A stretch of DNA of 64,000 bases. It comes from Candidatus Shapirobacteria bacterium (GTDB lineage: Bacteria > Patescibacteriota > Microgenomatia > UBA12405). Below the pieces are notes generated by a model. It saw only the letters and a program-made list of their open reading frames with translations, was not told where the DNA came from and searched no databases. This document shows, one piece after another, positions 10,642 through 59,090 of this stretch. The position numbers and the translations under genes are program-made. Position 1 is the stretch's first letter. The number at the start of each line of letters is the position of its first letter. Location of the stretch: assembly GCA_041649835.1 (NCBI GenBank), contig JBAZML010000002.1:3318-67317 (forward strand), read 5' to 3'.

Positions 10642-10649
10642 TATAAATA
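10642..10649 (+). promoter_or_regulatory. T4-type late promoter motif TATAAATA (second copy)
   Basis: Exact TATAAATA 7 nt upstream of the ATG at 10656. Confidence 0.4.
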
Positions 10650-10655: not shown

Positions 10656-11036
10656 ATGGACGACGTTTTCAATATACCAGAAGAAAAAGAGTCCCCAGAG
10701 GATTTACTAAGGGCAAACATAGAGAAAGCTAATGAAATATTAAATATAGCCATGTCTAATATTTCAGCTGGGCTGGCAACGCCGAGAATGCTAGAAGTGG
10801 CCGCCAAATTAGTGGACTCAGTTACAAACGCAGCAGAAAAATTAATTGGGGCCGGGTTCGATCTAGAGAGTTTACTTTTAAAAGAGCGTTTGATAAAATT
10901 AAAAGAAAAGGAATTAATGTTGAAATCTAATACGGACGGAGTCCCAAAAACTTTGAATCAGAACATAATCGTGAGTAGCAGAGAAGACCTTCTAAAGCTA
11001 TTTCAATCTAAAAAGGGGAATGAGAATGATGAATGA
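10656..11036 (+). CDS. hypothetical acidic/helical protein, first gene of PrkA operon
   Basis: 126-aa ORF overlapping PrkA start. Confidence 0.4.
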   Translation: MDDVFNIPEEKESPEDLLRANIEKANEILNIAMSNISAGLATPRMLEVAAKLVDSVTNAAEKLIGAGFDLESLLLKERLIKLKEKELMLKSNTDGVPKTLNQNIIVSSREDLLKLFQSKKGNENDE

Positions 11037-12975: not shown

Positions 12976-12976
12976 G

Positions 12977-14305: not shown

Positions 14306-14308
14306 TAT

Positions 14309-14401
14309 ATGATAGGATTTATTTTAGGGTTATTAGGGGGTTTATTCGTCGGTCATTTTTTAAGTAAAATGCTTCAAAAACTGTTAAATAAAGAGAGGTG
14401 A
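14309..14401 (+). CDS. small hydrophobic peptide (30 aa)
   Basis: MIGFILGLLGGLFVGHFL...; below ORF-track cutoff. Confidence 0.25.
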   Translation: MIGFILGLLGGLFVGHFLSKMLQKLLNKER

Positions 14402-14404
14402 TTT

Positions 14405-14533
14405 ATGATTATTGACTGGTACAGGTTCGGCTTCTTTTGTCTTTGTTTATTTGGGTCATTCTTTGCTAGTGGTATTCATGGAATTATTTGGTTTATGGCA
14501 GGAATAACTTACGTAAATATATGTGAGAGTTAA
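14405..14533 (+). CDS. small hydrophobic peptide (42 aa)
   Basis: MIIDWYRFGFFCLCLFGSFFASGIHGIIWFMAG... Confidence 0.25.
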   Translation: MIIDWYRFGFFCLCLFGSFFASGIHGIIWFMAGITYVNICES

Positions 14534-14535
14534 AG

Positions 14536-15030
14536 ATGAAAAAATGTGAACTATGTGGGGAGACTAGGATATTTCAGGACGATCCTACTGATAATGGATA
14601 TAATTTTGTGGTCTTTTGTTGTTATTCTCAATATCATATAGAATTAAATGGAACACAAAAATTAATACATCAAGGTACCTTATGTAAAGACTTTATGTTA
14701 TATAAACTTAAAAATTCTAGTCCGCATAATGAGTTATCAAACTCTGAAGCAGAAAGGCTTGCGTGGCTTCTCGAAGAACTTGGAGAAGTACAACAAGCAA
14801 TAGGTAAAGTACAACAAGCAATAGGTAAAATACTTAGACATGGATATGATAGCAAATGGCCTCCTGATATAGGACCCTCAAATAGAGATAATTTAGAAAA
14901 AGAAATAAGAGATGTTATCAAGGTGTTAAGATTAATGGACAGATTTACAGATATTAATCTTATGAAAATCGAGAACTCAGTAACAGATGACTACTCTAGA
15001 TGTTATCTACATCACCAGGATCTATCATGA
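14536..15030 (+). CDS. MazG-like nucleotide pyrophosphohydrolase-like protein with N-terminal zinc ribbon
   Basis: CELCGE N-terminus; LLEELGEVQQAIGK ... NLEKEIRDVIKVL resembles all-alpha NTP-PPase EExxE/ExxD helices; contains in-frame 21-bp tandem duplication. Confidence 0.4.
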   Translation: MKKCELCGETRIFQDDPTDNGYNFVVFCCYSQYHIELNGTQKLIHQGTLCKDFMLYKLKNSSPHNELSNSEAERLAWLLEELGEVQQAIGKVQQAIGKILRHGYDSKWPPDIGPSNRDNLEKEIRDVIKVLRLMDRFTDINLMKIENSVTDDYSRCYLHHQDLS

Positions 15031-16481
15031 AACTGCAAGAAACTCAACGTCTTATTAAAATTGAAGAAAAAATTAAGCAAATCGCCTCTGAGGAGCTCGG
15101 CTTAACTTTTCCTAACATTGAGTTCGATTGTATTCCGGCAGAGAAGATGATCGAAATCATGGCTTGTAGAGGTCCTTCCCAAATATCTCATTGGTCTTAT
15201 GGAAAGAACTATGAAAAAATTAAAACAATCTATAATGAAATTACCCCCGATCTTCCTTATGAAGTTGTTATTAATTCTCTTCCACCAAGAGCATATCTTC
15301 TTAATAAGAATACCTTAGCAGTTCAGGCCTTGGTCATTGCTCATGTTTATGGACACGTTCATTTCTTTACCAAAAGTAAATTCTTTTCTAAACATAGAAG
15401 AGATATTATAGAACTCATGTCCAATGCCTCTGATAGGTTTAGTAAATACGAAAAGAAATATGGTATTGAAAACGTAGAACCCATTATTGATGCTGGGCTG
15501 GCTTTACAACAACATGTTAATCCTTATGACGAAGAGACTGAAGAACAGAAAAGAGAACGAGTTTATGAGCACCATAAAAAGAAAATGCAACCATTTTCTC
15601 ATGAGTTCTCAGATCTGATTAACACCAATGACCGAGACCGAAATCTTGATATAGAAGCGTATAATAGTCAATTGCGGCTAGCTCTTAAAAATCTAATTCC
15701 AGTAGAGCCAACGGAGGATATTCTACGGTTTATTATTGATAATTCTAGAAACCTTGATGATTGGGAAAAGGATATACTCGAAATTATTAGGGAAGAGGGT
15801 ATGTACTATCACCCAGTTATTAAGACAAAAACAATTAATGAGGGATTTTCCGTCTTTGTGCACCAAAAGATTATGCAAAGACTTTTTGAGTTAAAATTGC
15901 TTACCCAAGAAGAACACGGTCAATACGCGGTAAGTAATTCTCTAGTAAAAGCTCAATCTATGTTTTCCATTAATCCTTATCTAGTAGGGTCTAAGATGTT
16001 AGAAGATATTGAAGACAGATGGAATAAGGGCAAATTTGGAAAAGAATGGGAGAATTGCGAAAATATAACAATAAAAAAGAGTTGGAATAAGAATCTAGGT
16101 TTGGGTTGGAAAAAGGTTTTAGATGTATGTGAATCTTATAATGATTGGTTGTTTATGCAAGATTTTTTAACTACAGACTTAATAGAAGAGTTGGAATTAT
16201 TTATTTATCAGCAGATAGAGACCAGGGACGAAATTAGATTAGTTAGAACAGAACATACTCTAGAAGAGATTAAACAAATGATTTTAATGAGTTATGCTTT
16301 GTCTTATACCCCTAAAATAGAGGTTATAGAAGGAAGAAAAGAATTAATTTTAAGGCATGAATATTTTGGAAATAATCTAGATACTAAATATGCTATGGAG
16401 ACTATAAAACATGTAACAAGACTCTGGGGAGATAAAGTCTTGTTACATACTAGAGATGGAGAAGTTGAATTGGTTTTGTAG
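15027..16481 (+). CDS. spoVR: SpoVR/YcgB-family protein
   Basis: MKLQETQ...CIPAEKMIEIMACRGPSQISHWSYGKNYEKIK..., IAHVYGHVHFF, NEGFSVFVHQKIM all match SpoVR landmarks; ATGA overlap with preceding gene. Confidence 0.85.
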   Translation: MKLQETQRLIKIEEKIKQIASEELGLTFPNIEFDCIPAEKMIEIMACRGPSQISHWSYGKNYEKIKTIYNEITPDLPYEVVINSLPPRAYLLNKNTLAVQALVIAHVYGHVHFFTKSKFFSKHRRDIIELMSNASDRFSKYEKKYGIENVEPIIDAGLALQQHVNPYDEETEEQKRERVYEHHKKKMQPFSHEFSDLINTNDRDRNLDIEAYNSQLRLALKNLIPVEPTEDILRFIIDNSRNLDDWEKDILEIIREEGMYYHPVIKTKTINEGFSVFVHQKIMQRLFELKLLTQEEHGQYAVSNSLVKAQSMFSINPYLVGSKMLEDIEDRWNKGKFGKEWENCENITIKKSWNKNLGLGWKKVLDVCESYNDWLFMQDFLTTDLIEELELFIYQQIETRDEIRLVRTEHTLEEIKQMILMSYALSYTPKIEVIEGRKELILRHEYFGNNLDTKYAMETIKHVTRLWGDKVLLHTRDGEVELVL

Positions 16482-34576: not shown

Positions 34577-34613
34577 GGTCTTAAGGATATTTATACAATA
34601 TCTCCTTAAGACC
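34577..34613 (-). promoter_or_regulatory. perfect 11-bp inverted repeat whose loop carries a TATAAATA late-promoter motif, ~38 nt upstream of tape-measure ATG
   Basis: ggtcttaagga-N15-tccttaagacc; loop tatttatacaatatc = TATAAATA on minus strand at 34588-34595. Confidence 0.5.
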
Positions 34614-37998: not shown

Positions 37999-38195
37999 TG
38001 TTCAAATCTCCTTTGTCGGTGAACCGAAGGATCGTTCAGCTCACTCTTGTTTGGGTTATATGGTATAGACAACACATATTTAAAATTTTGTTTTGGGTCT
38101 AAAGGTCGGTAATTCGTACTAGAATGTTCGTCGTTAGTAGTCGTCGTTTGTATATAAGTATTTATTAAAAAATTTCAGATTTTATCAAAAAATTA

Positions 38196-38243
38196 GTTTC
38201 AGGGGCTTGATGAGTATGATATAATAAACTAAAAGCTTGGAGG
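38196..38243 (+). promoter_or_regulatory. early/middle promoter cassette: GTTTCAG-N17-TGATATAAT-AAACTAAAAGCTTGGAGG
   Basis: 17-nt spacer, extended -10, conserved leader ending in GGAGG RBS before ATG 38254. Confidence 0.6.
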
Positions 38244-38253
38244 AAAGGAAAAC

Positions 38254-38550
38254 ATGAGTAAATGGGTAAAGATGTGGAAATCATATAACAGTGGTCCTGG
38301 AGAACCTGTTTATTTTGAATTTGAAAAAAATGAAGATATTAAAAATCTAATAGAGTATTGGGAGGAAGAAGAGTATTGGGATGAAGGTTATTATGATATT
38401 CTATGGGAACAAATTGATAAACCTCCAAAGGAATGGCTTGAAAAGGAAATTAAAGAATACGCTAAAAAATCTAAAAATTTATACAAAAATTATCGCAGAG
38501 CCAAAATTGCTATAGAAGATACCATTAAAAATTATAAACTTCTTCTATGA
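38254..38550 (+). CDS. small acidic protein, paralog A (tandem pair with 38907..39200)
   Basis: ~35-40% identity to ORF 38907 along its length (W.K.W, EYWEEEEYWDEGYY, IDKPP.EWL.KEI, KNLY.NYK). Confidence 0.5.
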   Translation: MSKWVKMWKSYNSGPGEPVYFEFEKNEDIKNLIEYWEEEEYWDEGYYDILWEQIDKPPKEWLEKEIKEYAKKSKNLYKNYRRAKIAIEDTIKNYKLLL

Positions 38551-38567
38551 TAAGGAGGTAGAGAAAT

Positions 38568-38753
38568 ATGAACCAGAAATTGCCTATGAGATATGATGTG
38601 GAATATGAGGGTGTACTTACTACGATCTATGAGGATATTTCCGGGGAATTTGAAACCTTAGTGGAAGCTAAGGAGGCGGCAATAAAACATTTACACGGCA
38701 TAATTGAAATGGCCGTATATCAAATAACCCACATTGCAGCAATGCAAAAATAA
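38568..38753 (+). CDS. hypothetical small protein
   Basis: GGAGG RBS; 61 aa. Confidence 0.35.
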   Translation: MNQKLPMRYDVEYEGVLTTIYEDISGEFETLVEAKEAAIKHLHGIIEMAVYQITHIAAMQK

Positions 38754-38773
38754 ATTCTAGGAGGAAACTCTGA

Positions 38774-38916
38774 TGGATAAGGAGCCTTTTGAAATTTGCG
38801 ATTGGTGCGGAGAAGGGGTACATTGGATCAATTCTCTGGGCTACTGTAAAAAATGTGTGGAGTGGCACATCAAGCAACACCATAAAGAAAATAAGGAGAA
38901 AGAAAAATGTGGTTAA
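38774..38916 (+). CDS. small zinc-ribbon protein (47 aa)
   Basis: AGGAGG RBS; CDWCGE...CKKCVEWH. Confidence 0.3.
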
Positions 38917-39200
38917 AAATATGGAGAGATAGTAGTGCAATGGCCGGGAGACCTCACTACGCCGAGTATGAAACTGAAAATGATATTGAGGGATTAATAG
39001 ATTATTTCGACGAAATGATTTATGGCGATGGCTACCATTATATTGAATGGGAAAAAATAGATAAACCCCCAATCGAATGGTTAAAGAAAGAAATACAGAG
39101 AAAAGCAGAAACACTAAAGAATTTATATGCTAACTATAAAGAGAACCGCCATAATTTACAAGAGTTTATTAAGCATTATAAATCTTTAATTAAATCATAG
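38907..39200 (+). CDS. small acidic protein, paralog B
   Basis: Paralog of 38254..38550. Confidence 0.5.
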   Translation: MWLKIWRDSSAMAGRPHYAEYETENDIEGLIDYFDEMIYGDGYHYIEWEKIDKPPIEWLKKEIQRKAETLKNLYANYKENRHNLQEFIKHYKSLIKS

Positions 39201-39212
39201 GAGGTAAGAAAA

Positions 39213-39367
39213 ATGGCTAAAAAGGCAAAAGGTTCTGCAGGGAATGGCAAGTCTGTTCGTAAAGTATTTTACTCTGTGTGGGACTACGAAAAGAAGGCCG
39301 AAATAAAAGTTTCTGAGCCTTCTAGGTCTGAACGTAATCGACGTATTAGACTAGGTTCTATAGTATA
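39213..39367 (+). CDS. small basic protein (51 aa)
   Basis: AGGAGG RBS; K/R-rich. Confidence 0.3.
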
Positions 39368-39377
39368 AGGAGGTAAA

Positions 39378-39560
39378 ATGGACATTTTTAATCCGTTTCC
39401 GTCTTTGGATAAAAATATAGAGGAGATTAAAAAATTGAGAGAGGCTTATGATCTTCTGGTTTCTATTCATCTTGAAATTGGGTCATATGGGCAAGGGAAA
39501 CTGTCTCAAGAACTTCTGTTTAAAATGAATGATTTCTTTGAGTTTGACGACTCTGAATAA
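39378..39560 (+). CDS. hypothetical small protein
   Basis: GGAGG RBS; 60 aa. Confidence 0.3.
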   Translation: MDIFNPFPSLDKNIEEIKKLREAYDLLVSIHLEIGSYGQGKLSQELLFKMNDFFEFDDSE

Positions 39561-39572
39561 AGGAGATAGTAC

Positions 39573-39776
39573 ATGTCTAGTCCCAATATACAGTTACTAA
39601 AGGCCACTTTAGAAAATCTTGCAAAAGAACTAAAATCTAATAGACCAATGATTTACGGAATAGATGGTGCATGGGCTCAAGGATACCAAGGGGGCCAATG
39701 GGATGCCGGATTTCATATTGAGGAATTACTAAAAGACTTTTTTGATTATGAAAAACCTGTTTCAGAAACCTCTTAG
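39573..39776 (+). CDS. hypothetical small protein
   Basis: GGAG RBS; 67 aa; its 3' end overlaps the next promoter cassette. Confidence 0.3.
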   Translation: MSSPNIQLLKATLENLAKELKSNRPMIYGIDGAWAQGYQGGQWDAGFHIEELLKDFFDYEKPVSETS

Positions 39777-39806
39777 GTATGTTATAATAAACTAAAACTT
39801 TGGAGG
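39759..39806 (+). promoter_or_regulatory. early/middle promoter cassette: GTTTCAGAA-N17-TGTTATAAT-AAACTAAAACTTTGGAGG
   Basis: Exact copy of the consensus; precedes GTG start at 39814. Confidence 0.6.
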
Positions 39807-39813
39807 TAAAAGG

Positions 39814-40107
39814 GTGATTAAAGTTTATCATAATAAAAATTTCCTTAATATTCCTTCATGGAAATGGGGTACTGAAGTTAAACCTGAAATCGTAGATTTA
39901 AAATGGGTGGCAACAGTCGATACGGACGATCTTAATGCGGCTTTTGAAAAAACGAACCATATTGATTGCGCATGGGAATATAATGAAGAAGTAAGTTCTT
40001 GTCTTATTAAACAAAGGTCTACTTCTTGTGGAGATGTCCTTATACATGGAGATAAAGCGTATGTGGTTGCGGCTGTAGGGTTTGTCGAGATTGATAACCT
40101 TTATTAG
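39814..40107 (+). CDS. hypothetical protein (GTG start)
   Basis: 97 aa after conserved leader. Confidence 0.35.
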   Translation: MIKVYHNKNFLNIPSWKWGTEVKPEIVDLKWVATVDTDDLNAAFEKTNHIDCAWEYNEEVSSCLIKQRSTSCGDVLIHGDKAYVVAAVGFVEIDNLY

Positions 40108-40115
40108 GTTATTTA

Positions 40116-40160
40116 GTTTCAGAATTTAGGTTAATGTATTATAAACTAAAACTTTGGAGG
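40116..40160 (+). promoter_or_regulatory. early/middle promoter cassette (variant -10 TATAAA)
   Basis: gtttcagaatttaggttaatgtattataaactaaaactttggagg. Confidence 0.55.
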
Positions 40161-40165
40161 TTGCC

Positions 40166-40414
40166 GTGAACCGAAAACAATTTATAGAACTTGTTAAAGA
40201 AGCCGAAAAAGGCTCGGTTTACAAAGATGAAGCAGATCTTTGGGAATCTTTGCGGCCGTTTGATGGACTGGCTCTCCATAAAGAAAGAAGGATGGCAACC
40301 AAAAAAGCGGTAATTAATTTCATTCGTTATCAAGCCCTCCAAATGAACGGTAATTGGGACTGGGATGAACTTGAAACCCTTCAATATTGTTTTCGTAGAG
40401 TGGATCTAATTTAG
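40166..40414 (+). CDS. hypothetical protein (GTG start after conserved leader)
   Basis: ORF track's TTG start at 40154 lies inside the GGAGG RBS; GTG at 40166 is the likelier start. Confidence 0.35.
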   Translation: MNRKQFIELVKEAEKGSVYKDEADLWESLRPFDGLALHKERRMATKKAVINFIRYQALQMNGNWDWDELETLQYCFRRVDLI

Positions 40415-40424
40415 AGGAGGTATT

Positions 40425-40673
40425 ATGTTAATCACCAAAAAATATGTTGACAAAATCGCACCATTTCACGGAAGGACTTCCTGTGACGATATTAATAGAA
40501 ATAATGCTTATGGTGGGTGGGATAAAACATATAATTCAAAAACCGGAGCAAAAAATATTATACTTCCTCGTTGTGCTCGATGTTATCTTCTTGATTCTAT
40601 TGGGTGTGATACTATGGACTTAGAATTTGAACCTGTAGTTGAAGTTTGGTTGAAGTATAAAGGAGAACGGTAA
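40425..40673 (+). CDS. hypothetical Cys-containing protein
   Basis: GGAGG RBS; 82 aa. Confidence 0.3.
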   Translation: MLITKKYVDKIAPFHGRTSCDDINRNNAYGGWDKTYNSKTGAKNIILPRCARCYLLDSIGCDTMDLEFEPVVEVWLKYKGER

Positions 40674-40675
40674 TC

Positions 40676-40975
40676 ATGAATAAAGTGGTCATTCCCAACT
40701 ACAGATTTTCCAATTGGAGCCGAGGTCAAAGCAAACCAGGTTCTTGGAAAATAGTATTGGAATATGACCCAAAAGATGTACCTAAGGATATTGTCTTAAC
40801 AGAAAAAGCGAAAGAAGTTTGGAAAAAGGAAAAGAGTATTTTTGGATATGCAAACTTTCGAGGACTTAAAACTGGAGACATATTATCTATAATCTCAGCA
40901 GCAAGGCGATCCGAGGTAAATTTAGGCGCTTCAAGAATGGGTTGGGTATGTTCATATAAAATTAAGGATCGTTAA
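40676..40975 (+). CDS. hypothetical protein
   Basis: 99 aa, ATGA overlap. Confidence 0.3.
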   Translation: MNKVVIPNYRFSNWSRGQSKPGSWKIVLEYDPKDVPKDIVLTEKAKEVWKKEKSIFGYANFRGLKTGDILSIISAARRSEVNLGASRMGWVCSYKIKDR

Positions 40976-41541
40976 TATGGAAAAATGGCAAAAAAGAATG
41001 CAAATGCTTAAAAGGTTTAAAAAAGCTAGACTGAAAAAGAAACTTATTAAGAGATGTCTGTTATGTGGTCAAATAATTTCAGAGGAGAGATAAAATGAAC
41101 CATAAAATAAATAAAATATTTGTTGCGTTGAACGATACAGCCAAAAAGAGACACATCAAAATCCGAGATCTTCAATATGAAGAGATTTCCCAAATAGTAA
41201 AAACTTATTCTGCTAGTGAAGAAGATTTTTATTTTTTATGGGAAAGTATTATGAAAACCGGACTTGTAAAATAATTTTTGGAGGATCACTATGGAAGACA
41301 AAGAATACGCAAAAAATCAAATTGTAATTCATTCTCTATTAGCTCAATGGTGGATGACCAGAGCACTTAGCTGAGAGGTTAAACGGATGGATTTATATCA
41401 CGTTGAGGGAAGTTATGGAGAGTATCCTAGAGATGAGTTCGCCAATGAAGAAAAGGTTTCTTATGCTGTTGATGCAGCCAAAAGGCAGATAGACATTATA
41501 AAAGATATTAATGATAAGGTTTTTGGGAGGGATGGTAGTTT

Positions 41542-42060
41542 ATGAAATTATTATTTTGTGAAAAATGCGGAGAAATTATTCCTATACCGGCCCCTAAAAA
41601 TAAAATAATATATTGTTCATGTGGTAATATTGGAGGAATATATCAAGATAATTGCGTTTATGCAAATATATATCTGAGGGATGAAGAATCGTTTCATACA
41701 TCCAAAGTTTTGGGTTTGAATAATTCAATATTATTAGGACTAGAAAAACAAATAGTTTGTAATGTAGGTGAATGGAATGACAGTCAACTATCAATATTTG
41801 TTGATGGGACTCCTATCAAATATGAGGAAATTAAATGGCCTACATACACTGGTTCGGATTTGGGATCAGCCTTTAATTATTTGTTAAAAGAGATAGGTAA
41901 AGAATTAAAAGATATAAGTTTCATAAAGGATCAAAAAATAAAGTTTAAGGATGGAGGATATGTACTATTAGCTGAACAACCGGCAAACAAGGATTTTATT
42001 TATGTTTCCGTACAGAAAAAAGACGGATATTTGATAGAAACTAAGCTTTTAAGATATTAA
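41542..42060 (+). CDS. hypothetical protein with N-terminal zinc ribbon
   Basis: CEKCGE...CSCGN; 172 aa. Confidence 0.35.
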   Translation: MKLLFCEKCGEIIPIPAPKNKIIYCSCGNIGGIYQDNCVYANIYLRDEESFHTSKVLGLNNSILLGLEKQIVCNVGEWNDSQLSIFVDGTPIKYEEIKWPTYTGSDLGSAFNYLLKEIGKELKDISFIKDQKIKFKDGGYVLLAEQPANKDFIYVSVQKKDGYLIETKLLRY

Positions 42061-42075
42061 GGAGAAGAAAAAAAA

Positions 42076-42900
42076 GTGATATGCTATTTTCATGAAGACT
42101 TGGATGGGATATGTTCAGCGGCCATTATAAAACACAAATATCCATGGGTGGAACTTATTCCTTTAAATTATGGAGATGATTACGATGAAAAAATCTTCTC
42201 TAGAAATTTTAAAAATGAAACTATTTTTTTTGTAGATATAACCACACAACCGGTATCCATAATGAGTGAGTTGACTATATTAAACCGAGTGATTATTCTC
42301 GATCACCACATCACCGCCATTAATAATATTAAAGCTTTGAATTGGGAGCCTGAAGGTATTTTAGACACATCAAAAGCTGGTTGCGAGTTAGCTTGGCAAT
42401 ATTGTTTTCCATATCAAGAACTTCCACTTCCTGTTTATTATCTTGGAAGGTATGATGTTTGGGATCATAGTAACGAATTAACTTTACCGTTTCAGTATGG
42501 TATGAGACTATTAAATTTGGCACCAGATTCACATTATTGGAAATATCTTTTTGCTGGGCATAAAGACTCCTATGCCCTAATCATCGAAGACGGAGAACTT
42601 GTTATTGAGTGGGAAAAAACTCAAAATGCTAAAAGGGCAGCAAACGCCTTTGAAGCAGAGTTTGAAGGCTTAAGAGCTATCGTTTGTAATGGGGATAGTG
42701 GTTCACCTTTGTTTGATTCAGTATATAATGAAGATAAACATGATATTATGGTTAGTTTTATATACACGAAAAATAAAGTTTGGACCTATGGTCTTTATTC
42801 TACAAAGCCAGATGTGAATTGCGGAGAAATAGCTAAGAGGCGTGGGGGTGGGGGCCATTTTTCAGCGTCAGGATTTCAAAGTAAAAAATTCTTGTTTTGA
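42076..42900 (+). CDS. DHH-DHHA1 family phosphoesterase (NrnA/oligoribonuclease-like)
   Basis: Motif I HEDLDGICSA, DHH at LDHHITA, C-terminal DHHA1 GGGGHFSASG. Confidence 0.6.
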   Translation: MICYFHEDLDGICSAAIIKHKYPWVELIPLNYGDDYDEKIFSRNFKNETIFFVDITTQPVSIMSELTILNRVIILDHHITAINNIKALNWEPEGILDTSKAGCELAWQYCFPYQELPLPVYYLGRYDVWDHSNELTLPFQYGMRLLNLAPDSHYWKYLFAGHKDSYALIIEDGELVIEWEKTQNAKRAANAFEAEFEGLRAIVCNGDSGSPLFDSVYNEDKHDIMVSFIYTKNKVWTYGLYSTKPDVNCGEIAKRRGGGGHFSASGFQSKKFLF

Positions 42901-42912
42901 AGGAGTTAACAA

Positions 42913-43119
42913 ATGAAACTGGGTAAAATTCAATCATGTGGAAACATATGTTATGTATCTACCTCAATCGATGAAGTAACTTTAACGTTTGGTAGAGGTG
43001 AACTTGATGAGTGGGGGTTTTGGGAAATTCCATGCGAAATATGTGCTCAGAACCATAAAAAAGCTTATCCTAATGATTTGGTTTGGCCGGATAAAGATAT
43101 ATGTGATGAGCCTAGTTAA
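42913..43119 (+). CDS. small zinc-ribbon protein
   Basis: CGNICY...CEICAQNH. Confidence 0.3.
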   Translation: MKLGKIQSCGNICYVSTSIDEVTLTFGRGELDEWGFWEIPCEICAQNHKKAYPNDLVWPDKDICDEPS

Positions 43120-43317
43120 AGGAGAATATTAATGAGATTCCCAAGTAAAAAATCTTCAGGAAAATTTCCTAACAAACTAATATTTGCGTTTTTGCCGCGT
43201 AGGTGTACGAAGTGTAGAGACACTATATGGTTGGAAGGTATTATTAAATCTTGGTATTATGGACTTAATAGATTTACATGTCTAAAATGTTATAGTAATG
43301 AATAGAGGAGTTATTAA

Positions 43318-43533
43318 ATGAAATATGAGCCGGAATGTGATATGATGTGGGACAAAAATGGGTACATAGCTCGTAGATATTGGGATAATGTATTTTGTAA
43401 ATTCTGTGGAGCTCCATTAAGCCCTAATGAGAGTTATGGTGAAGGTCCAGGCGATGGACCTGGAATGTGTATAGAATGTGTAAGAATTATTTTTAATGAA
43501 GTAGAGGAGGAGATGACAAATGCAGAAACTTAG
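43318..43533 (+). CDS. small zinc-ribbon protein
   Basis: CKFCGA...CIECV. Confidence 0.3.
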   Translation: MKYEPECDMMWDKNGYIARRYWDNVFCKFCGAPLSPNESYGEGPGDGPGMCIECVRIIFNEVEEEMTNAET

Positions 43534-43981
43534 AGATTTTTGCGCTATAGAAATTATGGAATGGGTTCCTCCAAAACAATTACCGGAAGGAAGATATTAT
43601 GATGTTAAAGAAAATGAAGAACTAGGTATTGGATATACTATAGGCTGGAGACATGAAGATGGCACTTTTTACTCCAATAAAGAACTAGAACCCTACGAAT
43701 ATTGGAGAACAAAAAATGGGGAAATTGTTAAGGCCCCATGGGGTGGGTATCTTACTAGGGGACAATATACAAGATGGCAACCAGATAATATTTATAATGG
43801 GCAAGCTTTTCTATTAATTGATAAGATCAGAGAAACTAGAAGTGTAGAAATTTATTTTCATAAGAGCAATGGTCTTGATGATGGAGTTTCTGTAAGAATA
43901 GATGATGGGTCATGGTGGTGGGATAAAAGTCTATTTTTAGTTTTGATTAATGCCTATACGGGGATGACATATGGATATTAA
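43520..43981 (+). CDS. hypothetical Trp-rich protein
   Basis: 153 aa. Confidence 0.3.
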   Translation: MQKLRDFCAIEIMEWVPPKQLPEGRYYDVKENEELGIGYTIGWRHEDGTFYSNKELEPYEYWRTKNGEIVKAPWGGYLTRGQYTRWQPDNIYNGQAFLLIDKIRETRSVEIYFHKSNGLDDGVSVRIDDGSWWWDKSLFLVLINAYTGMTYGY

Positions 43982-44133
43982 AAAAGTTCAAAATGCTTTG
44001 TTAGGACTAGCTTTATCTGAACATAAGGGAGAAGTAAATGACGAAATTCCGATTTTATGTGAGGCTTTAGGTATTTTGTGTAAATGGTCAGATAAATGGG
44101 AAAGATACATATTCTCATGGGAGTCAATATGGT

Positions 44134-44400
44134 ATGAATCAGAAGACTAAGAACATAATTAAAGGAATTCTTCTCATAGCTGTTCCTTTAATTATAATTA
44201 TTGTGATAGGATACTATTATGTTCAAAACACTTTTAATTCCACTATGTCGCCAATAACAAAAGGATTTGGAGGAATTACAATAAACAATCCTCCAGTAGG
44301 GCTATTTGATAGTTTAGCACAAATACTTATAGGACTAGGTATTTGTCTTTCAAGTGTTTGTTGGGGTGTAGCTAAAGTTATTAAAGCATTGAGAACTTAG
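44134..44400 (+). CDS. small membrane protein (two TM helices)
   Basis: Hydrophobic LLIAVPLIIIIVIGYYY and ILIGLGICLSSVCWGVA. Confidence 0.35.
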   Translation: MNQKTKNIIKGILLIAVPLIIIIVIGYYYVQNTFNSTMSPITKGFGGITINNPPVGLFDSLAQILIGLGICLSSVCWGVAKVIKALRT

Positions 44401-44409
44401 GAGATTAAA

Positions 44410-44625
44410 ATGGCTGGATATATTGGAAAAGTAAAATTGGATAAGGAAATTGTAGAAGGGTTTTTATTAATAGAACAAGATGAGCGTTACGATGAATATT
44501 ATGCAATGAAAATAGATGATGAATTATATCACGTTTATGGGGTTAATTTGCCTCGGTTTATTACAAGACTTGACAATTATAATTTAGAACAGTATATAGA
44601 AAAAGTGCCTAATGGCCTACTATAG
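44410..44625 (+). CDS. hypothetical small protein
   Basis: 71 aa. Confidence 0.3.
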   Translation: MAGYIGKVKLDKEIVEGFLLIEQDERYDEYYAMKIDDELYHVYGVNLPRFITRLDNYNLEQYIEKVPNGLL

Positions 44626-45250
44626 TTCAAAAGGCTCTCAGCTTCCCTCAGTCACAACTTTAATAGGGAGATATATTAATAAACCTTATTTAGCTAAGTG
44701 GGCTAGAGACTTAATGAGAGATTATTCTCTAGATTTTGAAAAAGAGTCCAGAATAGCCACAGAAATTGGTACAATAGCTCATGAAATGGTAGAATTAGAC
44801 CTTTTAGGACTACCATTAAAAGTATATCCTAAGAAATCTAAGGACCATATTAAACATGCTTTAATTGCCTATTCCGCTTGGGAGAAGTGGAAAGAATATC
44901 ATAAAATTGATAAGTTGCTAGGAACAGAAATAAAATTGACTTCAGAAGAGTATGGATTTGGGGGAACTATTGATATTCCTGCGGTAATTAATTCAAAAAA
45001 TACTATATTAGATCTTAAAACATCTAAGTCTATTAGTATAGAGTATCAGATTCAAATTGCCGCGTATGGTAAATTATGGGATGAAAATAATCCAGATACT
45101 AAAATTGAGAGATACGAAATTTTAAGACTTGATAAGTATTCTGGAGAATATGAATACGTAGGATGGGATGAATTAGAAAAACCTTGGAAGATTTTTAAAT
45201 ATTTTCTAGAAATAGACAAATTATTAAAAGAACTTGGGTATCAATTTTAG
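44612..45250 (+). CDS. PD-(D/E)XK-fold nuclease (RecB/Cas4-like core)
   Basis: LPSVTTLIG, GTIAHEMVE, GGTIDIP...ILDLKTSK (D...D/E-x-K). Confidence 0.45.
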   Translation: MAYYSSKGSQLPSVTTLIGRYINKPYLAKWARDLMRDYSLDFEKESRIATEIGTIAHEMVELDLLGLPLKVYPKKSKDHIKHALIAYSAWEKWKEYHKIDKLLGTEIKLTSEEYGFGGTIDIPAVINSKNTILDLKTSKSISIEYQIQIAAYGKLWDENNPDTKIERYEILRLDKYSGEYEYVGWDELEKPWKIFKYFLEIDKLLKELGYQF

Positions 45251-45299
45251 TTTCAGAAATTATCTAAACATGTTATAATAAACTAAAACTCTTTGGAGG
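45250..45299 (+). promoter_or_regulatory. early/middle promoter cassette: GTTTCAGAA-N17-TGTTATAAT-AAACTAAAACTCTTTGGAGG
   Basis: 17-nt spacer; leader ends in GGAGG before ATG 45305. Confidence 0.6.
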
Positions 45300-45304
45300 C
45301 TATT

Positions 45305-45610
45305 ATGAGTTATATGAGTGACAATATCCGAGAAGGTAAATATGATAATAAGCTTCCATTTGTATCTAGGAAAAAAGATCCAGAAGCGTACAAAGAATAT
45401 AATCAGGAGACTTCTCGTCTTCTAGACCTTTTTATTGATGACCTTGAAAAAGAGTATGATACCTCTAAACTCAAAGGAAAAGATAAGATTTTTGCATACG
45501 CTTGGGAACAAGGTCATGCGTACGGGTTTAGCGAAGTTGTAATTCACTATGAGGAAATTGCCGCTCTTGTTGTTGAAGTGATGTTGGCAAATCTTCCAGA
45601 CAAGAAATAA
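45305..45610 (+). CDS. hypothetical protein
   Basis: ATG 45305 after conserved leader (ORF-track TTG at 45293 is inside the RBS). Confidence 0.35.
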   Translation: MSYMSDNIREGKYDNKLPFVSRKKDPEAYKEYNQETSRLLDLFIDDLEKEYDTSKLKGKDKIFAYAWEQGHAYGFSEVVIHYEEIAALVVEVMLANLPDKK

Positions 45611-45636
45611 ACTAGAATTCTTTGGAGGAACCGATA

Positions 45637-46860
45637 ATGTCTTTAAAAAATGTTTATTTTGCTTTAGAGGAAATTGCCGCGGAACCTTCCACAAACGCTA
45701 AACAAATTTTAATTCAAAAATATCTGAATACTCCGTACTTTAAAGAAGTGGTTTATTTTACATATAATCCATTTTTAAAATATAAAATCTCTGAAGTTAC
45801 GTATACTGCATATAACCCATCTGGGTCTCCTGCAGATATTTTCAGTGTGTTAAGGCGCTTATCTGAGCAACGTGGAGCAAATAATCAAGATCGCAATGGA
45901 CTATCTAGAATAGCGTCTATTGATCCAGAAACAGTATCTGTGGTAAATAGAATTCTCAAGAGTGATTTGCGCTGTGGAGCTGGAACAACTTTATTTAGGA
46001 AGTTTATACCAGAAATTCCTAAACACGAGACAATGCTTTGTGGTAAAGATTTTGATAAATTCATGAAGTTAGCAGGGTCTTATGATAATGTAGTTGGATC
46101 TATAAAACAAGATGGTGTAAGAACTTGGGCCATCGTAGATAAACTTAGACAAAATGTAAAATACTTATCTCGTAACGGGAAAGAGTTTATTAATTTTGAT
46201 GTCTTTGACGAAGTTTTTATCGAATTTGCAAAGAAAGTCTATGATAATCAAGACGATTATGTTATTCTTGATGGAGAAGTCGTTACTAAAGACAAAAACT
46301 TTCAAAAAGTACTAACACAATTTAGTAGACATACTGGAGTCCAAAAAGATCTTTTTGAATTCAGAATCTTTGATATTGTTAATGATTTACCGTTTTATGC
46401 TAGATACGAACTATTAACTAAGCATTTTGAACTCGATACTAATCCAGATCATCCTCCTGTATGTTTGGTTCACCACTTTAGAAACTTCAAATCTAAAAAA
46501 GAAATTTATGATCTTCTTGATAAAGTTGCAGGAGAAGGTGAAGAAGGTTTAGTAATTAAAACCTTTAATGGCCCCTATGAGATGAAAAGATCTAATCATT
46601 GGTGTAAACTGAAATTAACTTACACTGAAGATTTACCAGTCTTACGTTTTGAATATGGCACTGGTAAGTATAAGAATTTACTTGGGGCTCTTATTTGCGA
46701 CAGAAATGGTGTAGAAGTACGGGTAGGCTCTGGGTATGATGACCAAGAAAGAGTTGATCTACTTAATATACCTTCTATGATAGAAGTCAAATTCAAAAAT
46801 GTTACAGATGATGGTTCACTAAGAGAACCTATCTTTGTTAGGGTAAGAGAGGACAAATGA
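45637..46860 (+). CDS. ATP-dependent DNA ligase
   Basis: Nucleotidyltransferase motifs I KQDGVR, III ILDGEVV, IV EGLVIK, V WCKLK. Confidence 0.8.
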   Translation: MSLKNVYFALEEIAAEPSTNAKQILIQKYLNTPYFKEVVYFTYNPFLKYKISEVTYTAYNPSGSPADIFSVLRRLSEQRGANNQDRNGLSRIASIDPETVSVVNRILKSDLRCGAGTTLFRKFIPEIPKHETMLCGKDFDKFMKLAGSYDNVVGSIKQDGVRTWAIVDKLRQNVKYLSRNGKEFINFDVFDEVFIEFAKKVYDNQDDYVILDGEVVTKDKNFQKVLTQFSRHTGVQKDLFEFRIFDIVNDLPFYARYELLTKHFELDTNPDHPPVCLVHHFRNFKSKKEIYDLLDKVAGEGEEGLVIKTFNGPYEMKRSNHWCKLKLTYTEDLPVLRFEYGTGKYKNLLGALICDRNGVEVRVGSGYDDQERVDLLNIPSMIEVKFKNVTDDGSLREPIFVRVREDK

Positions 46861-47170
46861 TCTGGATACTATGTCCTATAGTCTCATTAATTTATTTCTT
46901 TTATATTTTTAGTTACAAAGAATCTGCTCCAGCAAGTTGGGAGAAATAAATTAATAGCCGAGAACTTAAATCTTCTGAGGAATGGCAAAAACAATTTGAA
47001 CATTTAATTTATGTTATGGACCCTGATGGATGGGATCGGCATAACTATGATTATTCTTGGTATGACGAGAAAATTACAAAAGATGAATTCTTTGGTAGAG
47101 TTACTTCTTCTACATGTATATTTAAGGTATCTCCTATGGAACTTTATGATATGTTAACTTCTGGTGAAAT

Positions 47171-47761
47171 ATGAAAATTGGATTCGATTTTGACGCAGTG
47201 CTTGTAAACTCAGCTTTGGTTCTCTGTGATATATTATCGCAGACACTTAATAGATTAGTGTTACCTGAAGAAATATGTCTCTACGACATCCAAAAAGGTT
47301 TTCCGCAGTTATCAGACAAAGACATTATTCATGTAATAGACTCCTTAGTAAATATGGACAACACATTTAAAATTCCTCCATATCCTGGGGCCTTAGATTT
47401 TCTTAGGTGGTATGGAAAATCAAACCTAGAAATTATAATCATCACTAATAGAGTAGACCTAACTCCGGTATCTGTATATCTAGAATCTAACTTAGATAAA
47501 AAGACTTTTGAAAAAATTAGACTCTTTTATTCTAAAGAAAAAGGTCCATTATCCAGAGCGTTGGGTCTAAAATATTTCATTGAGGATAGATTTCAAAACA
47601 TTGTAAATTTAGCTAATCATGGCGTAGTTCCCATAATCTTTAAACAAAATTGGAATAAAAATCGAATCTCCCAAAAAAGTAATTTATTTGATTTGTGTGT
47701 ATTTGTTGATTCATGGGAGGACATATATAATTTTGTTGGGTGTGAGTTTTTTGGGTATTAG
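47171..47761 (+). CDS. HAD-superfamily hydrolase, 5'(3')-deoxyribonucleotidase-like
   Basis: N-terminal IGFDFDAVL (DxDx[TV] motif I). Confidence 0.45.
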   Translation: MKIGFDFDAVLVNSALVLCDILSQTLNRLVLPEEICLYDIQKGFPQLSDKDIIHVIDSLVNMDNTFKIPPYPGALDFLRWYGKSNLEIIIITNRVDLTPVSVYLESNLDKKTFEKIRLFYSKEKGPLSRALGLKYFIEDRFQNIVNLANHGVVPIIFKQNWNKNRISQKSNLFDLCVFVDSWEDIYNFVGCEFFGY

Positions 47762-47763
47762 CG

Positions 47764-47813
47764 GTTTCAGAAATCTTCTAAGCATGTTATAATAAATTAA
47801 AACCTTGGAGGTA
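47764..47813 (+). promoter_or_regulatory. early/middle promoter cassette: GTTTCAGAA-N17-TGTTATAAT-AAATTAAAACCTTGGAGG
   Basis: Consensus copy before ATG 47819. Confidence 0.6.
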
Positions 47814-49600: not shown

Positions 49601-49720
49601 AGGAGATAGAATGATGAACAGGAAAGCTGCTACAAAGTTTGACATCATTTCAGGACAAGCCAACACCCCCGCCAAAGCAATCCTAACCGCAGCGTGGGCG
49701 GCGTTGGAAGGAGGGAAGTG

Positions 49721-50164
49721 ATGGAACCCTGTAGAATTTGCGGTGCAGCGGAATATACAGCCAGTTATGGCGGGCCAGGTATATGCCCTAAGTGTGACTG
49801 CGGTGTATTCGATGCAAATGTTATGGCATGGAACAATAACAAGTTATCAACCGAACTCGCCGCCCTCAAAGAAGTTTTAGATGATAAAAGGCGGTTAACC
49901 AGAGAAATTGACGTTATTTTGAATGGAGAAAATGCGGCTAAACAGGCAAGCCTTTGTGACCTGATAGGCCAAATAAAAGAACTAGCCACTCTCCAGGGTC
50001 TGGTGCGGGAGATGGGAGCGGTTCTTGATAAAGTGGCAAATCATAAATGTTGTGAAATAGTAACGGTTGCTAATGGAGAAACTAAAGTTTCAAGGTATGC
50101 AAGAATAGCTACACAAATCCTCAACCGCCCCGAAGTTAAGGCGGTTCTTGAAGGAGGGAAGTAA
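49721..50164 (+). CDS. hypothetical protein with N-terminal zinc ribbon
   Basis: GGAGGG RBS; CRICGA...CPKCDCG; C-terminus ...AVLEGGK shared with upstream 36-aa ORF. Confidence 0.35.
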   Translation: MEPCRICGAAEYTASYGGPGICPKCDCGVFDANVMAWNNNKLSTELAALKEVLDDKRRLTREIDVILNGENAAKQASLCDLIGQIKELATLQGLVREMGAVLDKVANHKCCEIVTVANGETKVSRYARIATQILNRPEVKAVLEGGK

Positions 50165-50319
50165 TGCTTCCAACCCTAAATGCTGCTCTTCTTGCTGGGT
50201 CAGTCTTATTTTTTGGGATATTTTTAGCAGGAATGAAGACATCTAAAAGTGCCCCAATCGGTAATTTATTCTTATTATTAGCCTACCTATGCTTATTTTT
50301 TGGGTTGGCATCGAAATAA
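50164..50319 (+). CDS. small membrane protein (51 aa)
   Basis: Same GAAGGAGGGAAGT RBS cassette as previous gene; two hydrophobic helices. Confidence 0.3.
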   Translation: MLPTLNAALLAGSVLFFGIFLAGMKTSKSAPIGNLFLLLAYLCLFFGLASK

Positions 50320-52882: not shown

Positions 52883-52890
52883 TATTTATA
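52883..52890 (-). promoter_or_regulatory. T4-type late promoter motif TATAAATA upstream of the homing endonuclease gene
   Basis: tatttata on plus strand ~22 nt upstream of ATG; GGAGG RBS between. Confidence 0.4.
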
Positions 52891-55547: not shown

Positions 55548-55555
55548 TATTTATA
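55548..55555 (-). promoter_or_regulatory. T4-type late promoter motif TATAAATA
   Basis: tatttata on plus strand ~40 nt upstream of ATG 55508 with GGAGGG RBS. Confidence 0.5.
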
Positions 55556-57527: not shown

Positions 57528-59090
57528 CTAATATCCACCACTTTGCTGTTGTTCAAGTTTTGGATCAGGTCTGAATCCTAGTTTTATGTCTTCAGCAAAC
57601 GAGGCAGCATTCGCCTTAATATCATTTTCGTCCCATTCTAAATATTTTCTCATTAAGAAGGACTTTCCCATTTCTGGCAAATTTGCGAGTGTGAGATAAT
57701 TATTGAACTTTACTTCTCTCATTATTTGTTCTTGCTTGTCCTTATAGAAAGAAGGCTGAATCATCTTAATGGCTATATTGTCTCTAGTTAATTCGTATTC
57801 AGCTTTAAGACCCTTGAATTCTAGATGAAGTAAAAATAGATTAAGCCACTCATTACAAAAACGATTTTGCTGCCGAGAAAGAAATGTCGCCCATTTGATC
57901 TCATCTCTGCTAATTTCTCCAGCCGGGCTTCTTGAAAATAAAATCTCTGACTCTCTATCACTTTGCATAGCAGAAACCCTAGACATAGGATATTTAAGAG
58001 ACTGATACAGCTTTCTTTGAAAGTACTTAATATCTGAGAGTTCTGTAAACCCAGCTGTAGAAGATCCACCAACAGTAGAAATATCTGAACCTCTTCCCTC
58101 GCTCGACGTACTAAGAAAAAAATTGTCCTGTATAGATAAAACATCAGGATTTTGAGTTAATCTACCAGTACTTGGATCATAACTCTGTTTCTTCATCATA
58201 GAAGACTTTACTTTTTCAACATATTTCATGGCCTTATCTCTGGGCATATTTCCTACGTCTACCTTAAATACTAGTCTCTCGGGGGCCCTCACAATTCGGT
58301 AAATAATGATAGAAGTTTCAAGTAGTTTCAGTGTATTATACGGAACTTTTACCTTTTCCAAATACCCAAAAATCTCAGATTTAAGTCTTCCATAAATACC
58401 ATAGTCTACAAGTCCTATTTGGGCTGGTTCAAATTCAATAACATCTTTTTCTGATGGATTTACTTTTTTACCGGAATCTGGATTAAGATATTGTCTAAAC
58501 TTCTTTATTTTACCTGTTATATGATCGTATTCAAAATCCATAGTTTCTGACGGAAGTTTCTTAATTCCGATAATTCCGTTTTTTTGGTTCTTTTCATCTA
58601 TTATTCTTTCATAGTAAAATCTACCATCAATAAAATAGCTTCTAAAATAATCATAACAGTTTTCATGGAGTTTAAGTTTATTATAGAATAAATCGTCGAA
58701 TTCCTCTTGAAGTTTATCTATAATATTCTTATTCTTTTTAAGATCTTCCTCTTGAATATCGAGCACTAAAACTTTGCCTTCTAGATCTTCTTGGGTAGAT
58801 TCTATACAAGCATCTTCAATAACGTCTGCGATTTCTGGCATTTCAGCGATGTTTCTATAGTTTAAAATTTTTGCTCTTTCATTATCGAAAGTTTTATTTA
58901 TGTAGTGGGCGTAGAACAAATTAAAACTTGAAGTTGACAAAGCCGAAAATTGTGGTAGAAACTCTAACCCCTCACCTGACATATTCTTGGCAATTTTCGG
59001 TGTTAGCGTAGTTCCGCCCTTGTTTTTAAAGGCTGCTATTGACTCATCCAACTTACTTACATAATTTTTTACGCCAGATAATATTCCCAT
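57528..59090 (-). CDS. portal protein (gp20-like)
   Basis: 520 aa, gene order terminase..portal..protease..scaffold..capsid as in T4. Confidence 0.6.
   Translation of the reverse strand: MGILSGVKNYVSKLDESIAAFKNKGGTTLTPKIAKNMSGEGLEFLPQFSALSTSSFNLFYAHYINKTFDNERAKILNYRNIAEMPEIADVIEDACIESTQEDLEGKVLVLDIQEEDLKKNKNIIDKLQEEFDDLFYNKLKLHENCYDYFRSYFIDGRFYYERIIDEKNQKNGIIGIKKLPSETMDFEYDHITGKIKKFRQYLNPDSGKKVNPSEKDVIEFEPAQIGLVDYGIYGRLKSEIFGYLEKVKVPYNTLKLLETSIIIYRIVRAPERLVFKVDVGNMPRDKAMKYVEKVKSSMMKKQSYDPSTGRLTQNPDVLSIQDNFFLSTSSEGRGSDISTVGGSSTAGFTELSDIKYFQRKLYQSLKYPMSRVSAMQSDRESEILFSRSPAGEISRDEIKWATFLSRQQNRFCNEWLNLFLLHLEFKGLKAEYELTRDNIAIKMIQPSFYKDKQEQIMREVKFNNYLTLANLPEMGKSFLMRKYLEWDENDIKANAASFAEDIKLGFRPDPKLEQQQSGGY

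Follow-up and report, generated by a model that had tools for sequence, protein, structure and literature searches.

The 64,000-nt window analyzed here (positions 3,318–67,317 of contig JBAZML010000002.1, assembly GCA_041649835.1, deposited as Candidatus Shapirobacteria bacterium) carries a cassette of promoter, short leader, and ribosome-binding site that recurs in nearly the same form ahead of small genes, raising the question of which parts of the cassette are conserved and what might read them. By its gene content, the window is part of a deeply divergent T4-like myovirus, an assignment made because of the gp23-type capsid, sheath, baseplate hub, and tail proteins, together with Pfam matches on a related contig. 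The new observation is a genome-wide swap of one cassette element: sister lineages keep the −10 element, start region, and Shine-Dalgarno (SD) sequence, with unrelated boxes at the −35 position.

A repeated promoter and ribosome-site cassette

The cassette follows the plan GTTTCAG-N17-TATAAT-AAACTAAAAC-yTTGGAGG-N5-10-start, in which promoter and ribosome site are combined within ~55 bases. Six cassettes in the window are full; besides them, one copy is leaderless, another has a variant box (GTTTACT), and a decayed half-copy precedes the ligase gene (Table 1). The repeat family is real and statistically unambiguous: the exact arrangement GTTTCAG-N17-TATAAT occurs six times against 0.00 expected (100 dinucleotide-preserving shuffles), and the 18-mer leader (≤3 mismatches) matches six times against 0.12 expected. 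An unfiltered scan of the window with a sequence-only covariance model built from 20 cassettes separated the six full copies (47–63 bits, E ≤ 1e-13) from all else, with hits at 39754 (63 bits), 47760 (59), 45245 (57), 9989 on the minus strand (52), 38190 (50), and 40111 (47). The next-best score (22.6 bits; 10605–10569, minus strand) covers only the box and −10 element, and lower scores were obtained for 392–414 (15.1 bits) and 45590–45635 (11 bits). A 16.6-bit partial match within the portal gene (58669–58703, minus strand; TATAATAAACTTAAAC) has neither box nor SD and is probably due to chance.

All of the cassette sites in the initial annotation are present where it had placed them, and a perfect copy on the minus strand (C6, 9928–9983), which it had overlooked, joins them. 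Several of its statements on uniformity do not hold. The 17-nt spacer described as exact in each copy is 14 nt in C3 (40116), which also has TATTAT and no TGn; the extended −10 element TGTTATAAT, described as perfect throughout, is exact in only four window copies, with TGA or TGG in two more and TG absent from C3 and C6 (9983, minus strand); the 18-nt leader, described as invariant, is exact in only three copies, with two mismatches in two and a 2-nt insertion in one; and GGAGG precedes the start codon by 5–10 nt instead of 6–9 nt. Amongst the eight window copies, the −10 hexamer is TATAAT in seven and TATTAT in one, and TGn precedes it in six; across all contigs, TG is found in 15 of the 20 copies with the box of the window (class 1, below). 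The minus-strand site at 10561–10600 (C7) has the box and −10 element, but the leader is absent and the ATG lies 7 nt past the −10, so that its mRNA would be leaderless, while the copy at 378–414, called degenerate, has the exact 17-nt spacing but a box, GTTTACT, of the T4 type GTTTAC, and a 5′ untranslated region (UTR) that is longer (~57 nt, then ATG 472) and different. Open reading frames (ORFs) called from TTG codons inside TTGGAGG at 40154, 45293, and 45622 had been recognized as spurious, and the likely true starts are GTG 40166, ATG 45305, and ATG 45637.

The cassettes are fitted closely between genes. Intergenic gaps of 58, 54, and 57 nt are filled exactly by C3, C4, and C5, the spacer of C2 contains the stop of the upstream ORF (TAG, 39774–39776), and the first G of the C4 box doubles as the last base of an upstream TAG stop. 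A small hairpin (ATAACC-tttatt-AGGTTAT) lies immediately upstream of C3; the window scan predicted no terminator adjoining any cassette, and the cassette spacers share no inverted repeat. A bidirectional terminator-like hairpin at 9605–9629 ends both the two-gene minus-strand unit of C7 and C6 and the plus-strand operon that finishes at 9577.

As had been proposed, the promoter and ribosome-site cassettes head groups of small prereplicative genes and form a class distinct from late promoters. The early block (38.2–52.2 kb, plus strand) lies between the tail and head modules (both minus strand) and consists of ~40 mostly small ORFs together with genes for a DNA ligase, a PD-(D/E)XK-like exonuclease, a DHH phosphoesterase, and a nucleotidase-like protein. 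Structural gene starts, in contrast, are preceded at 25–45 nt by the T4 late-promoter octamer TATAAATA (55548–55555, 52883–52890, and 34588–34595, all minus strand); for the sheath gene, the sequence is TAATAAATAC in the window, versus a perfect TATAAATA in the syntenic relative L022 (~5455, minus strand). Since the structural genes carry TATAAATA, the cassettes represent a separate, prereplicative promoter class, and the octamers suggest that this distant clade has a late system of the gp55 type. The first operon after C1 encodes two paralogous small acidic proteins (38254–38550 and 38907–39200; 98 and 97 aa; motif ...IDKPP.EWL.KEI...) without family matches. L022 (5380–5460) also keeps an intergenic block between sheath and early genes (38090–38175; AAAATTTTGTTTTGG...TCGTTAGTAG...TCGTTTG) that belongs neither to the cassette nor to the late promoter.

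Replacement of the box between sister lineages

Relatives were found by scanning IMG/VR, JGI metagenomes, and GTDB genomes for sequence patterns, after which contigs were traced through ligase homologues, and 24 cassette copies of class 1 (box GTTTCAGAAA, as in the window) and 11 of class 2 (box GTCCCTTTTT) were found over at least eight contigs. Class-1 members include Ga0265297_10001732 (48.7 kb; L001, L002), Ga0265297_10003103 (31 kb; L010, L012), four Ga0105090 contigs (L005, L007, L014, L017), and a Logan contig (L083). Class 2 is represented by L022 (Ga0105097_10000138), which is syntenic with the window across the sheath, early block, and gp23 (proteins 51–91% identical), and its box is also present on IMG/VR 3300027721_000101 (L072, L079) and 3300009169_000159 (L080). 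Judged from the sample sources (JGI 3300009169, Ga0105090, 3300029288, and 3300027721), these phages may come from enrichments of anoxic sediment or leachate. The L022 promoters keep TG(A/T)TATAAT and AAAC(T)TAAAA...GGAGG, with GTCCCTTT(T/C)T replacing GTTTCAGAAA and the box starting 23 nt before TATAAT, compared to 24 nt in the window.

Sites were also chosen independently of the box (−10, AAACTAAAA with ≤2 mismatches, SD, start codon), and GTTTCAG was present at 19 of 19 such sites on class-1 contigs and GTCCCTTT at 7 of 7 on class-2 contigs, with no contig mixed. In alignments of orthologous promoters, the flanks, −10 element, and leader are conserved, and the box and spacer alone are replaced. 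The swap between GTTTCAGAAA and GTCCCTTTTT is seen at ≥7 orthologous positions, including those of C1, C4, and C5 (Table 1) and four further positions in L012 and L001 (class 1) versus L072 and L079 (class 2). At one of these four, the leaderless promoter of a CCA-adding enzyme gene (77% amino acid identity between classes), the ATG lies 6 nt past the −10 in both classes and only the box differs. The class-1 consensus (n = 20) is aaAaa.taGTTTCAGAAatc..ctaaatATGtTATAATAAACTAAAAc.TTGGaGGtaa and the class-2 consensus (n = 11) is tAgGTCCCTTTtTt.a..a..taTGATATAATAAAc.TAAAActgaGgagg; the box is invariant in all 24 class-1 and 11 class-2 copies, and its spacing to the −10 is fixed while the spacer sequence is variable.

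By blastn, only the cassettes align between L001 and the window (80–92% over 40–60 nt). The window shares no proteins with L001, L002, L010, and L012 at E < 1e-8, and these four therefore cover other genome regions. Judged from these alignments, the cassette is far better conserved than the surrounding coding sequence. The cassette was absent from the more distant relatives L020, L023, L024, and L025 (ligase 48–58% identical), and L020 (188-kb contig) has an ordinary TTGACA-16-TATAAT promoter.

The class-2 box might be taken for one half (3′) of a terminator hairpin, a reading rejected since no complementary arm lies upstream of the true class-2 copies; some chance matches to this box (L073, L077, L081) are of that type. 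A scan with the pattern TGNTATAATRAAACTAAAA, which is one base too long, returned mostly unrelated phages. One contig, L052 (IMGVR_UViG_3300045988_046538), has its own repeated cassette at 2877–2895 and 3514–3532 (minus strand), with TGCTATAATGAAACTAAAA preceded by a conserved CACAYGCGCTTTCTCTTTTCGCG.AAAAAACA, and several unrelated low-GC phage contigs join TTGACA or GTTTAC to TATAAT-AAAACTAAAA-(A)GGAGG. The A-rich leader may therefore be a general optimum. A literature search for GTTTCAG with phage promoters found nothing relevant.

The cassettes also coincide with breaks in gene content. A 23-nt direct repeat of the leader (91%; 45277–45299 and 45606–45628) flanks ORF 45305–45610, which is absent from L005, where the ligase gene is directly behind the cassette; L022 has this ORF as well as a promoter-less leader remnant before the ligase gene. 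The ORF directly after C5 (47819–48259) is absent from L022, and in L007, which has one cassette, the genes around it are ordered differently and the orthologue of the gene starting at 40166 has no cassette before it. The block between the sheath and head modules is longer in the window (14 kb) than in L022 (9.2 kb). The ligases (window, 45637–46860; L005, 3149–4366; L022, 10001–11218) are 86% identical between L005 and L022, with either 70–71% identical to the window, while the exonuclease, DHH, and nucleotidase-like genes are 84–92% identical between the window and L005 compared to 51–71% for L022. These values indicate that the ligase gene is mosaic, through the exchange of a module with cassettes at its boundaries. 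Classes that exchange genes would therefore share hosts, and a difference in host sigma is thus an unlikely cause of the difference in the box. A second repeated ribosome-binding region (49697–49723 and 50140–50166; 27 nt, 81%; GGCGG..TTGGAAGGAGGGAAGTRATG) flanks ORF 49718–50164 and may mark another site of recombination or consist of tails of paralogous genes.

Table 1. Cassettes and associated elements in the window, with orthologous promoters in related contigs (W, window; L, related contig)
Feature	Position	Strand	Box and spacer	−10 element	Leader	Start codon	Score (bits)	Remarks
C1	38196–38256	+	GTTTCAG, 38196–38202	TGATATAAT, 38217–38225	AAACTAAAAGCTTGGAGG, 38226–38243	ATG 38254	49.5	divergent junction of tail sheath gene (minus strand) and early block; W38196 / L022_5481 (class 2)
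C2	39759–39816	+	39759–39765	TGTTATAAT, 39780–39788	exact, 39789–39806	GTG 39814	63	
C3, variant	40116–40168	+	40116–40122; 14-nt spacer	TATTAT, 40137–40142	exact, 40143–40160	GTG 40166	47.4	
C4	45250–45307	+		TGTTATAAT, 45271–45279	2-nt insertion, 45280–45299	ATG 45305	56.6	W45250 / L005_3093 (class 1) / L022_9621 (class 2)
Decayed half-cassette	45606–45639	+	no box	lost		ATG 45637	11	AATAAACTAGAATTCTTTGGAGG; before DNA ligase gene
C5	47764–47821	+	47764–47770	TGTTATAAT, 47785–47793	AAATTAAAACCTTGGAGG, 47794–47811	ATG 47819	59.1	W47764 / L005_5203 (class 1) / L022_12946 (class 2)
C6	9928–9983	−	9983–9977	TATAAT, 9959–9954; no TG	exact, 9953–9936	ATG 9930–9928	52.1	
C7, leaderless	10561–10600	−	10600–10594	TGGTATAAT, 10579–10571	none; AACCATT before ATG	ATG 10563–10561	22.6	190-aa ORF
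Variant copy	377–414	+	GTTTACT, 377–383; 17-nt spacer	TGTTATAAT, 398–406	AAACTAAA, 407–414		15.1	
Bidirectional terminator-like hairpin	9605–9629	both						10-bp stem, 8 G-C pairs

Start site, leader, and candidate readers of the box

In three leaderless copies, C7 (W10600), L012_1943 (1943–1914), and L072_3776 (3776–3804), the ATG lies 6–7 nt past the −10, which would place the start site at the 7th or 8th base past the −10. In the standard cassette, the start would fall within AAACTA/AAAC, and the first 6–7 nt of the 18-mer would therefore be an untranscribed discriminator, leaving ~12 nt of RNA, five of which are SD. The RNA would begin A(A)AACyUUGGAGG, with a 5′ UTR of ~20 nt. Six such 5′ ends, folded with 30 nt of coding sequence, had z values of −1.1 to +1.1 and no shared structure, and Rfam gave 0 matches at the gathering score across the whole window. 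Conservation does not extend past the SD, and the start codon is flanked by variable bases. Selecting sites by the box and −10 alone gave 24 true class-1 sites (23 from the scan, plus W40116, which is outside that scan with its 14-nt spacer), 19 of which have the standard leader, two of which are leaderless (W10600 and L012_1943), and three of which have other leaders (L010_1258, L010_1003, and L002_10064). With 5 of 24 sites lacking the standard leader, it is therefore usual and not obligatory. A role of the cassette as a three-frame translation stop was tried and rejected (9 of 20 class-1 and 1 of 10 class-2 copies, compared to 8.3 and 3.1 expected from shuffles).

The TTTCAG that the initial annotation had taken as the −35 hexamer does sit at the −35 position, but it is swapped wholesale in the sister phages, which makes it the element of greater interest, one that the annotation had left unremarked. 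Relative to TTGACA, GTTTCAGAAA has 2 of 6 matches when read as GTTTCAG and 4 of 6 when read as TTCAGA with a 16-nt spacer, while the class-2 GTCCCTTTTT has ≤1 of 6. The boxes are centered at approximately −31.5 (class 1) and −30.5 (class 2), 13–14 bp from the −10. T4 early promoters have an A/T-rich UP element at −40 to −60; here, an A-tract (AAAAA) at −46 to −39 is found in about half of the class-1 copies (mean, 4.7 A per 10 nt; ~3.3 expected) and is weaker in class 2.

A mechanism in four steps is proposed. First, host RNA polymerase with the primary sigma would bind the (T)RTGnTATAAT extended −10; Gram-positive primary-sigma promoters have a TRTG “−16” motif, which the YATGn before TATAAT fits. 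Second, transcription would start 7–8 nt downstream, at an A in AAACTA/AAAC, and the unstructured, A-rich 5′ UTR, with its GGAGG(T) SD 5–10 nt before the start codon, would allow efficient and uniform translation starts. Third, the invariant 7–10 bp box near −31 would be the recognition site of a phage-encoded factor, and not an ordinary host −35, and the factor would substitute for sigma region 4 or act on it; a mode resembling an activator or sigma appropriation is favored over a repressor. The specificity of this factor would have changed between the lineages, from one of the two boxes to the other, with every promoter following. Fourth, the shared −10 and leader segment may provide the homology for recombination that inserts, deletes, or swaps gene modules.

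Overall, the cassettes are probably T4-early/PeSL-like promoter and ribosome-site modules for prereplicative genes (PeSL, early-promoter stem-loop element), with the box read by a phage-encoded specificity factor, a reading held with moderate confidence. The factor step is proposed because the box is invariant beside a variable spacer at a fixed spacing, and because GTCCCTTTTT bears no resemblance to a −35 and the box tracks lineage despite gene flow; it is an inference, since no factor was found, the genomes are incomplete, and class 1 alone could pass as a weak −35. More tentative is the extension that this T4-like clade, with its Gram-positive-style host signals, uses a novel factor other than MotA/AsiA, re-set between gene-exchanging lineages with all of the promoters following. 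Candidates for its nature would be an adaptor of sigma region 4, an activator, or a phage sigma whose region 2 resembles that of the host.

Scans with Pfam and PHROGs of the window ORFs and of 114 ORFs from relatives, all partial genomes, gave no MotA, AsiA, or sigma. For Pfam, MotA and AsiA had no match at E < 4e-5 amongst the 73 window ORFs and none amongst the 25 of 30 families listed for the 114 ORFs of the relatives, and phmmer with the T4 MotA and AsiA sequences as queries gave E > 1 throughout (64 kb of genome and fragments of others). No RegA family was present amongst the matches listed for the window ORFs, and no separate canonical early promoter class able to express an activator first was identified in the window. 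On L010, the operon behind one class-1 cassette includes the gene of an HU-type DNA-binding protein (2571–2843, plus strand; 90 aa), which recalls TF1, the binder of early promoters in SPO1; as a candidate for a protein associated with the box, it is weak.

Several points weigh against the favored account. The Pfam, PHROGs, and phmmer scans of the window and related ORFs yielded no candidate factor from these partial genomes, and a host-type −35 can be read in the class-1 box (the 4 of 6 matches above), so class 1 alone needs no special factor. Conservation extends to part of the spacer (AAAtc..ctaaatATGt in the consensus), and gene conversion between copies may therefore add to the uniformity. 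Promoter activity, timing, and start site are all predicted from sequence, and the stem-loops of PeSLs are absent from the cassettes.

The main rival, unlikely on balance, is a simpler account in which the cassettes are plain host-sigma early promoters: the extended −10 (TGnTATAAT) would suffice, with the class-1 box as a weak −35 and the class-2 box functionally neutral, and gene conversion among the numerous copies (concerted evolution) would homogenize the boxes within each lineage. A generic scan gives the cassettes 10/12 plus TG, extended −10 promoters can function without a −35 (PMC2988021), and the cassettes recombine and have a partly conserved spacer. Conversion tracts would not, however, skip the spacer, which is free in sequence and fixed in length beside an invariant box, and the class-1 copies without TG (9983, minus strand; L002 10064; L014; L010 730) would be poor promoters. 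Further, class-1 contigs with no other DNA in common still share the exact box, and the classes swap genes but never boxes within a contig.

The initial annotation had suggested a second, post-transcriptional role of the leader. As an alternative to the phage-read box, the leader would be an operator for a post-transcriptional regulator (a RegA-like repressor or a RegB-like RNase site) that shuts off early genes, which is improbable. T4 RegB cuts GGAG in early SD sequences, AAACTAAAAC-yTTGGAGG is found in 19 of 24 class-1 copies with a close variant in class 2, and, in the window as well as in L022, a promoter-less copy precedes the ligase gene. A recombination scar next to an indel accounts better for this copy, and the leader, of which only ~12 nt would be transcribed, shows no structure beyond shuffles and no Rfam match. 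The same box and −10 drive leaderless and variant-leader copies, the surroundings of the start codon (the RegA site in T4) are not conserved, late genes also use GGAG-type SDs, and the families listed for the window include no RegA. The post-transcriptional idea is the weakest part of the initial annotation, and a RegA-like role of the leader is unsupported.

Very improbable is a reading in which a host global regulator such as CodY binds the class-1 box (TTTC-A-GAAA) and ties early transcription to the nutritional state of the host: TTTCAGAAA is a perfect 4-1-4 palindrome and matches 10–11 of 15 positions (copies checked by eye) of AATTTTCWGAAAATT, the CodY consensus of low-GC Gram-positives, but the invariant G at −36 is outside that consensus, the AAA half varies (GGG, GAT, and GAA in three copies), and the class-2 box at orthologous promoters is dissimilar and not palindromic.

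The box swap represents a natural experiment on re-setting promoter specificity across a whole regulon, and, provided that the box is read by a phage factor, matched factor and site pairs would be available from the two lineages, both for identifying this factor and for the study of sigma-region-4 replacement outside the T-even phages. The cassette model also corrects gene starts (TTG inside TTGGAGG), marks prereplicative units in metagenomic phage contigs, and yields compact parts combining a promoter and ribosome-binding site.

Phage context and comparison with known systems

The window (G+C ~35%; no tRNA genes) has no DNA-level match in 50,697 deposited phage records (megablast, blastn). 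The gp23-type major capsid protein is 35–38% identical to pelagiphage and cyanophage T4-like homologues, other products include a tail sheath, a baseplate hub, and a tail lysozyme/tape-measure-like protein, and the syntenic L022 has Pfam matches to Portal_T4, Peptidase_S77, T4_baseplate, and gp19-like proteins. SD sites across the window are AGGAG/GGAGG. Elsewhere in the window, a trio of genes for a PrkA kinase, DUF444 (YhbH/YeaH), and SpoVR (11020–16481, plus strand; Pfam E = 4e-117, 3e-83, and 8e-101) is apparently behind T4-late-type promoters (TATAAATA at 10607–10614 and 10642–10649), and PrkA homologues occur in 17 of the 50,697 records, mostly Thermus phages of the phiYS40 group. A plus-strand cluster at 1–9600 (glycosyltransferase-like protein, NAD-dependent epimerase, methyltransferase) might serve DNA or surface modification.

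The cassettes resemble T4 early promoters in being many near-identical, strong promoters before small prereplicative genes, with a sigma-70-type −10 that includes TGn. T4 early promoters have “additional regions of consensus” (PMC2988021), and eight of them in the T4 stretch examined read tttcacaaaacgGTTTACA...TGGTACTATacaactatcaacta, with a G 24 nt before the −10 hexamer. A GTTT with its G at this same distance is common to both phages (GTTTAC(A) in T4; GTTTCAG here, with GTTTACT in the copy at 377), as is conservation downstream of the −10 (ACAACTATCAACTA in T4; AAACTAAAAC in this phage; PMC2988021). The two differ in the last three bases of the box, and the sister lineage carries GTCCCTTTTT, without −35 resemblance; here, the 5′ UTR is also much shorter and standardized, and the SD is of the GGAGG type.

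The PeSLs of RB49/phi1, PST/T4, and nt-1/KVP40 comprise a promoter, SD, and start codon, with degraded halves near indels, and their −35s vary by lineage yet remain TTGACA-like (TTGACA, TTTACW, TTGYVH; PMC2839356, PMC4122927). As in PeSLs, the cassette is a repeated intergenic element that runs from an upstream stop to a downstream start and contains promoter, SD, and start, and it is found in hyperplastic regions before ORFans, flanking indels or replacements, with degraded halves and a lineage-specific −35 region. Unlike PeSLs, it is shorter (~55 nt), its box is replaced outright between lineages, and it has no stem-loop or terminator part, with an upstream hairpin at one of the seven window copies (C3; 6–7-bp A/T-rich stem). 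Given the missing stem-loop, the cassettes are not classed as PeSLs in the strict sense.

T4 middle promoters, which depend on sigma appropriation by MotA and AsiA, and their stem-loop counterparts (PmSL) likewise pair a host-type, often extended −10 with a phage box in the place of the −35, centered near −30. The geometry alone is similar: the box is unrelated to the MotA box, (a/t)(a/t)(a/t)TGCTTtA, and the available sequence has no MotA/AsiA homologue. The related phages T7, T3, and SP6 keep their promoter architecture and vary a short specificity segment matched to a phage-encoded reader, and phages of the T7 group encode their own single-subunit RNA polymerase; in contrast, the −10 here is of the host-sigma type and the reader is hypothetical. 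In kind, the system is therefore a known one, T4-type early promoters as portable PeSL-like modules, found here in an undescribed T4-like clade. Early-promoter cassettes that act as recombination junctions, known in T4-like coliphages and vibriophages, are thereby extended to a divergent, uncultured clade of T4-like phages.

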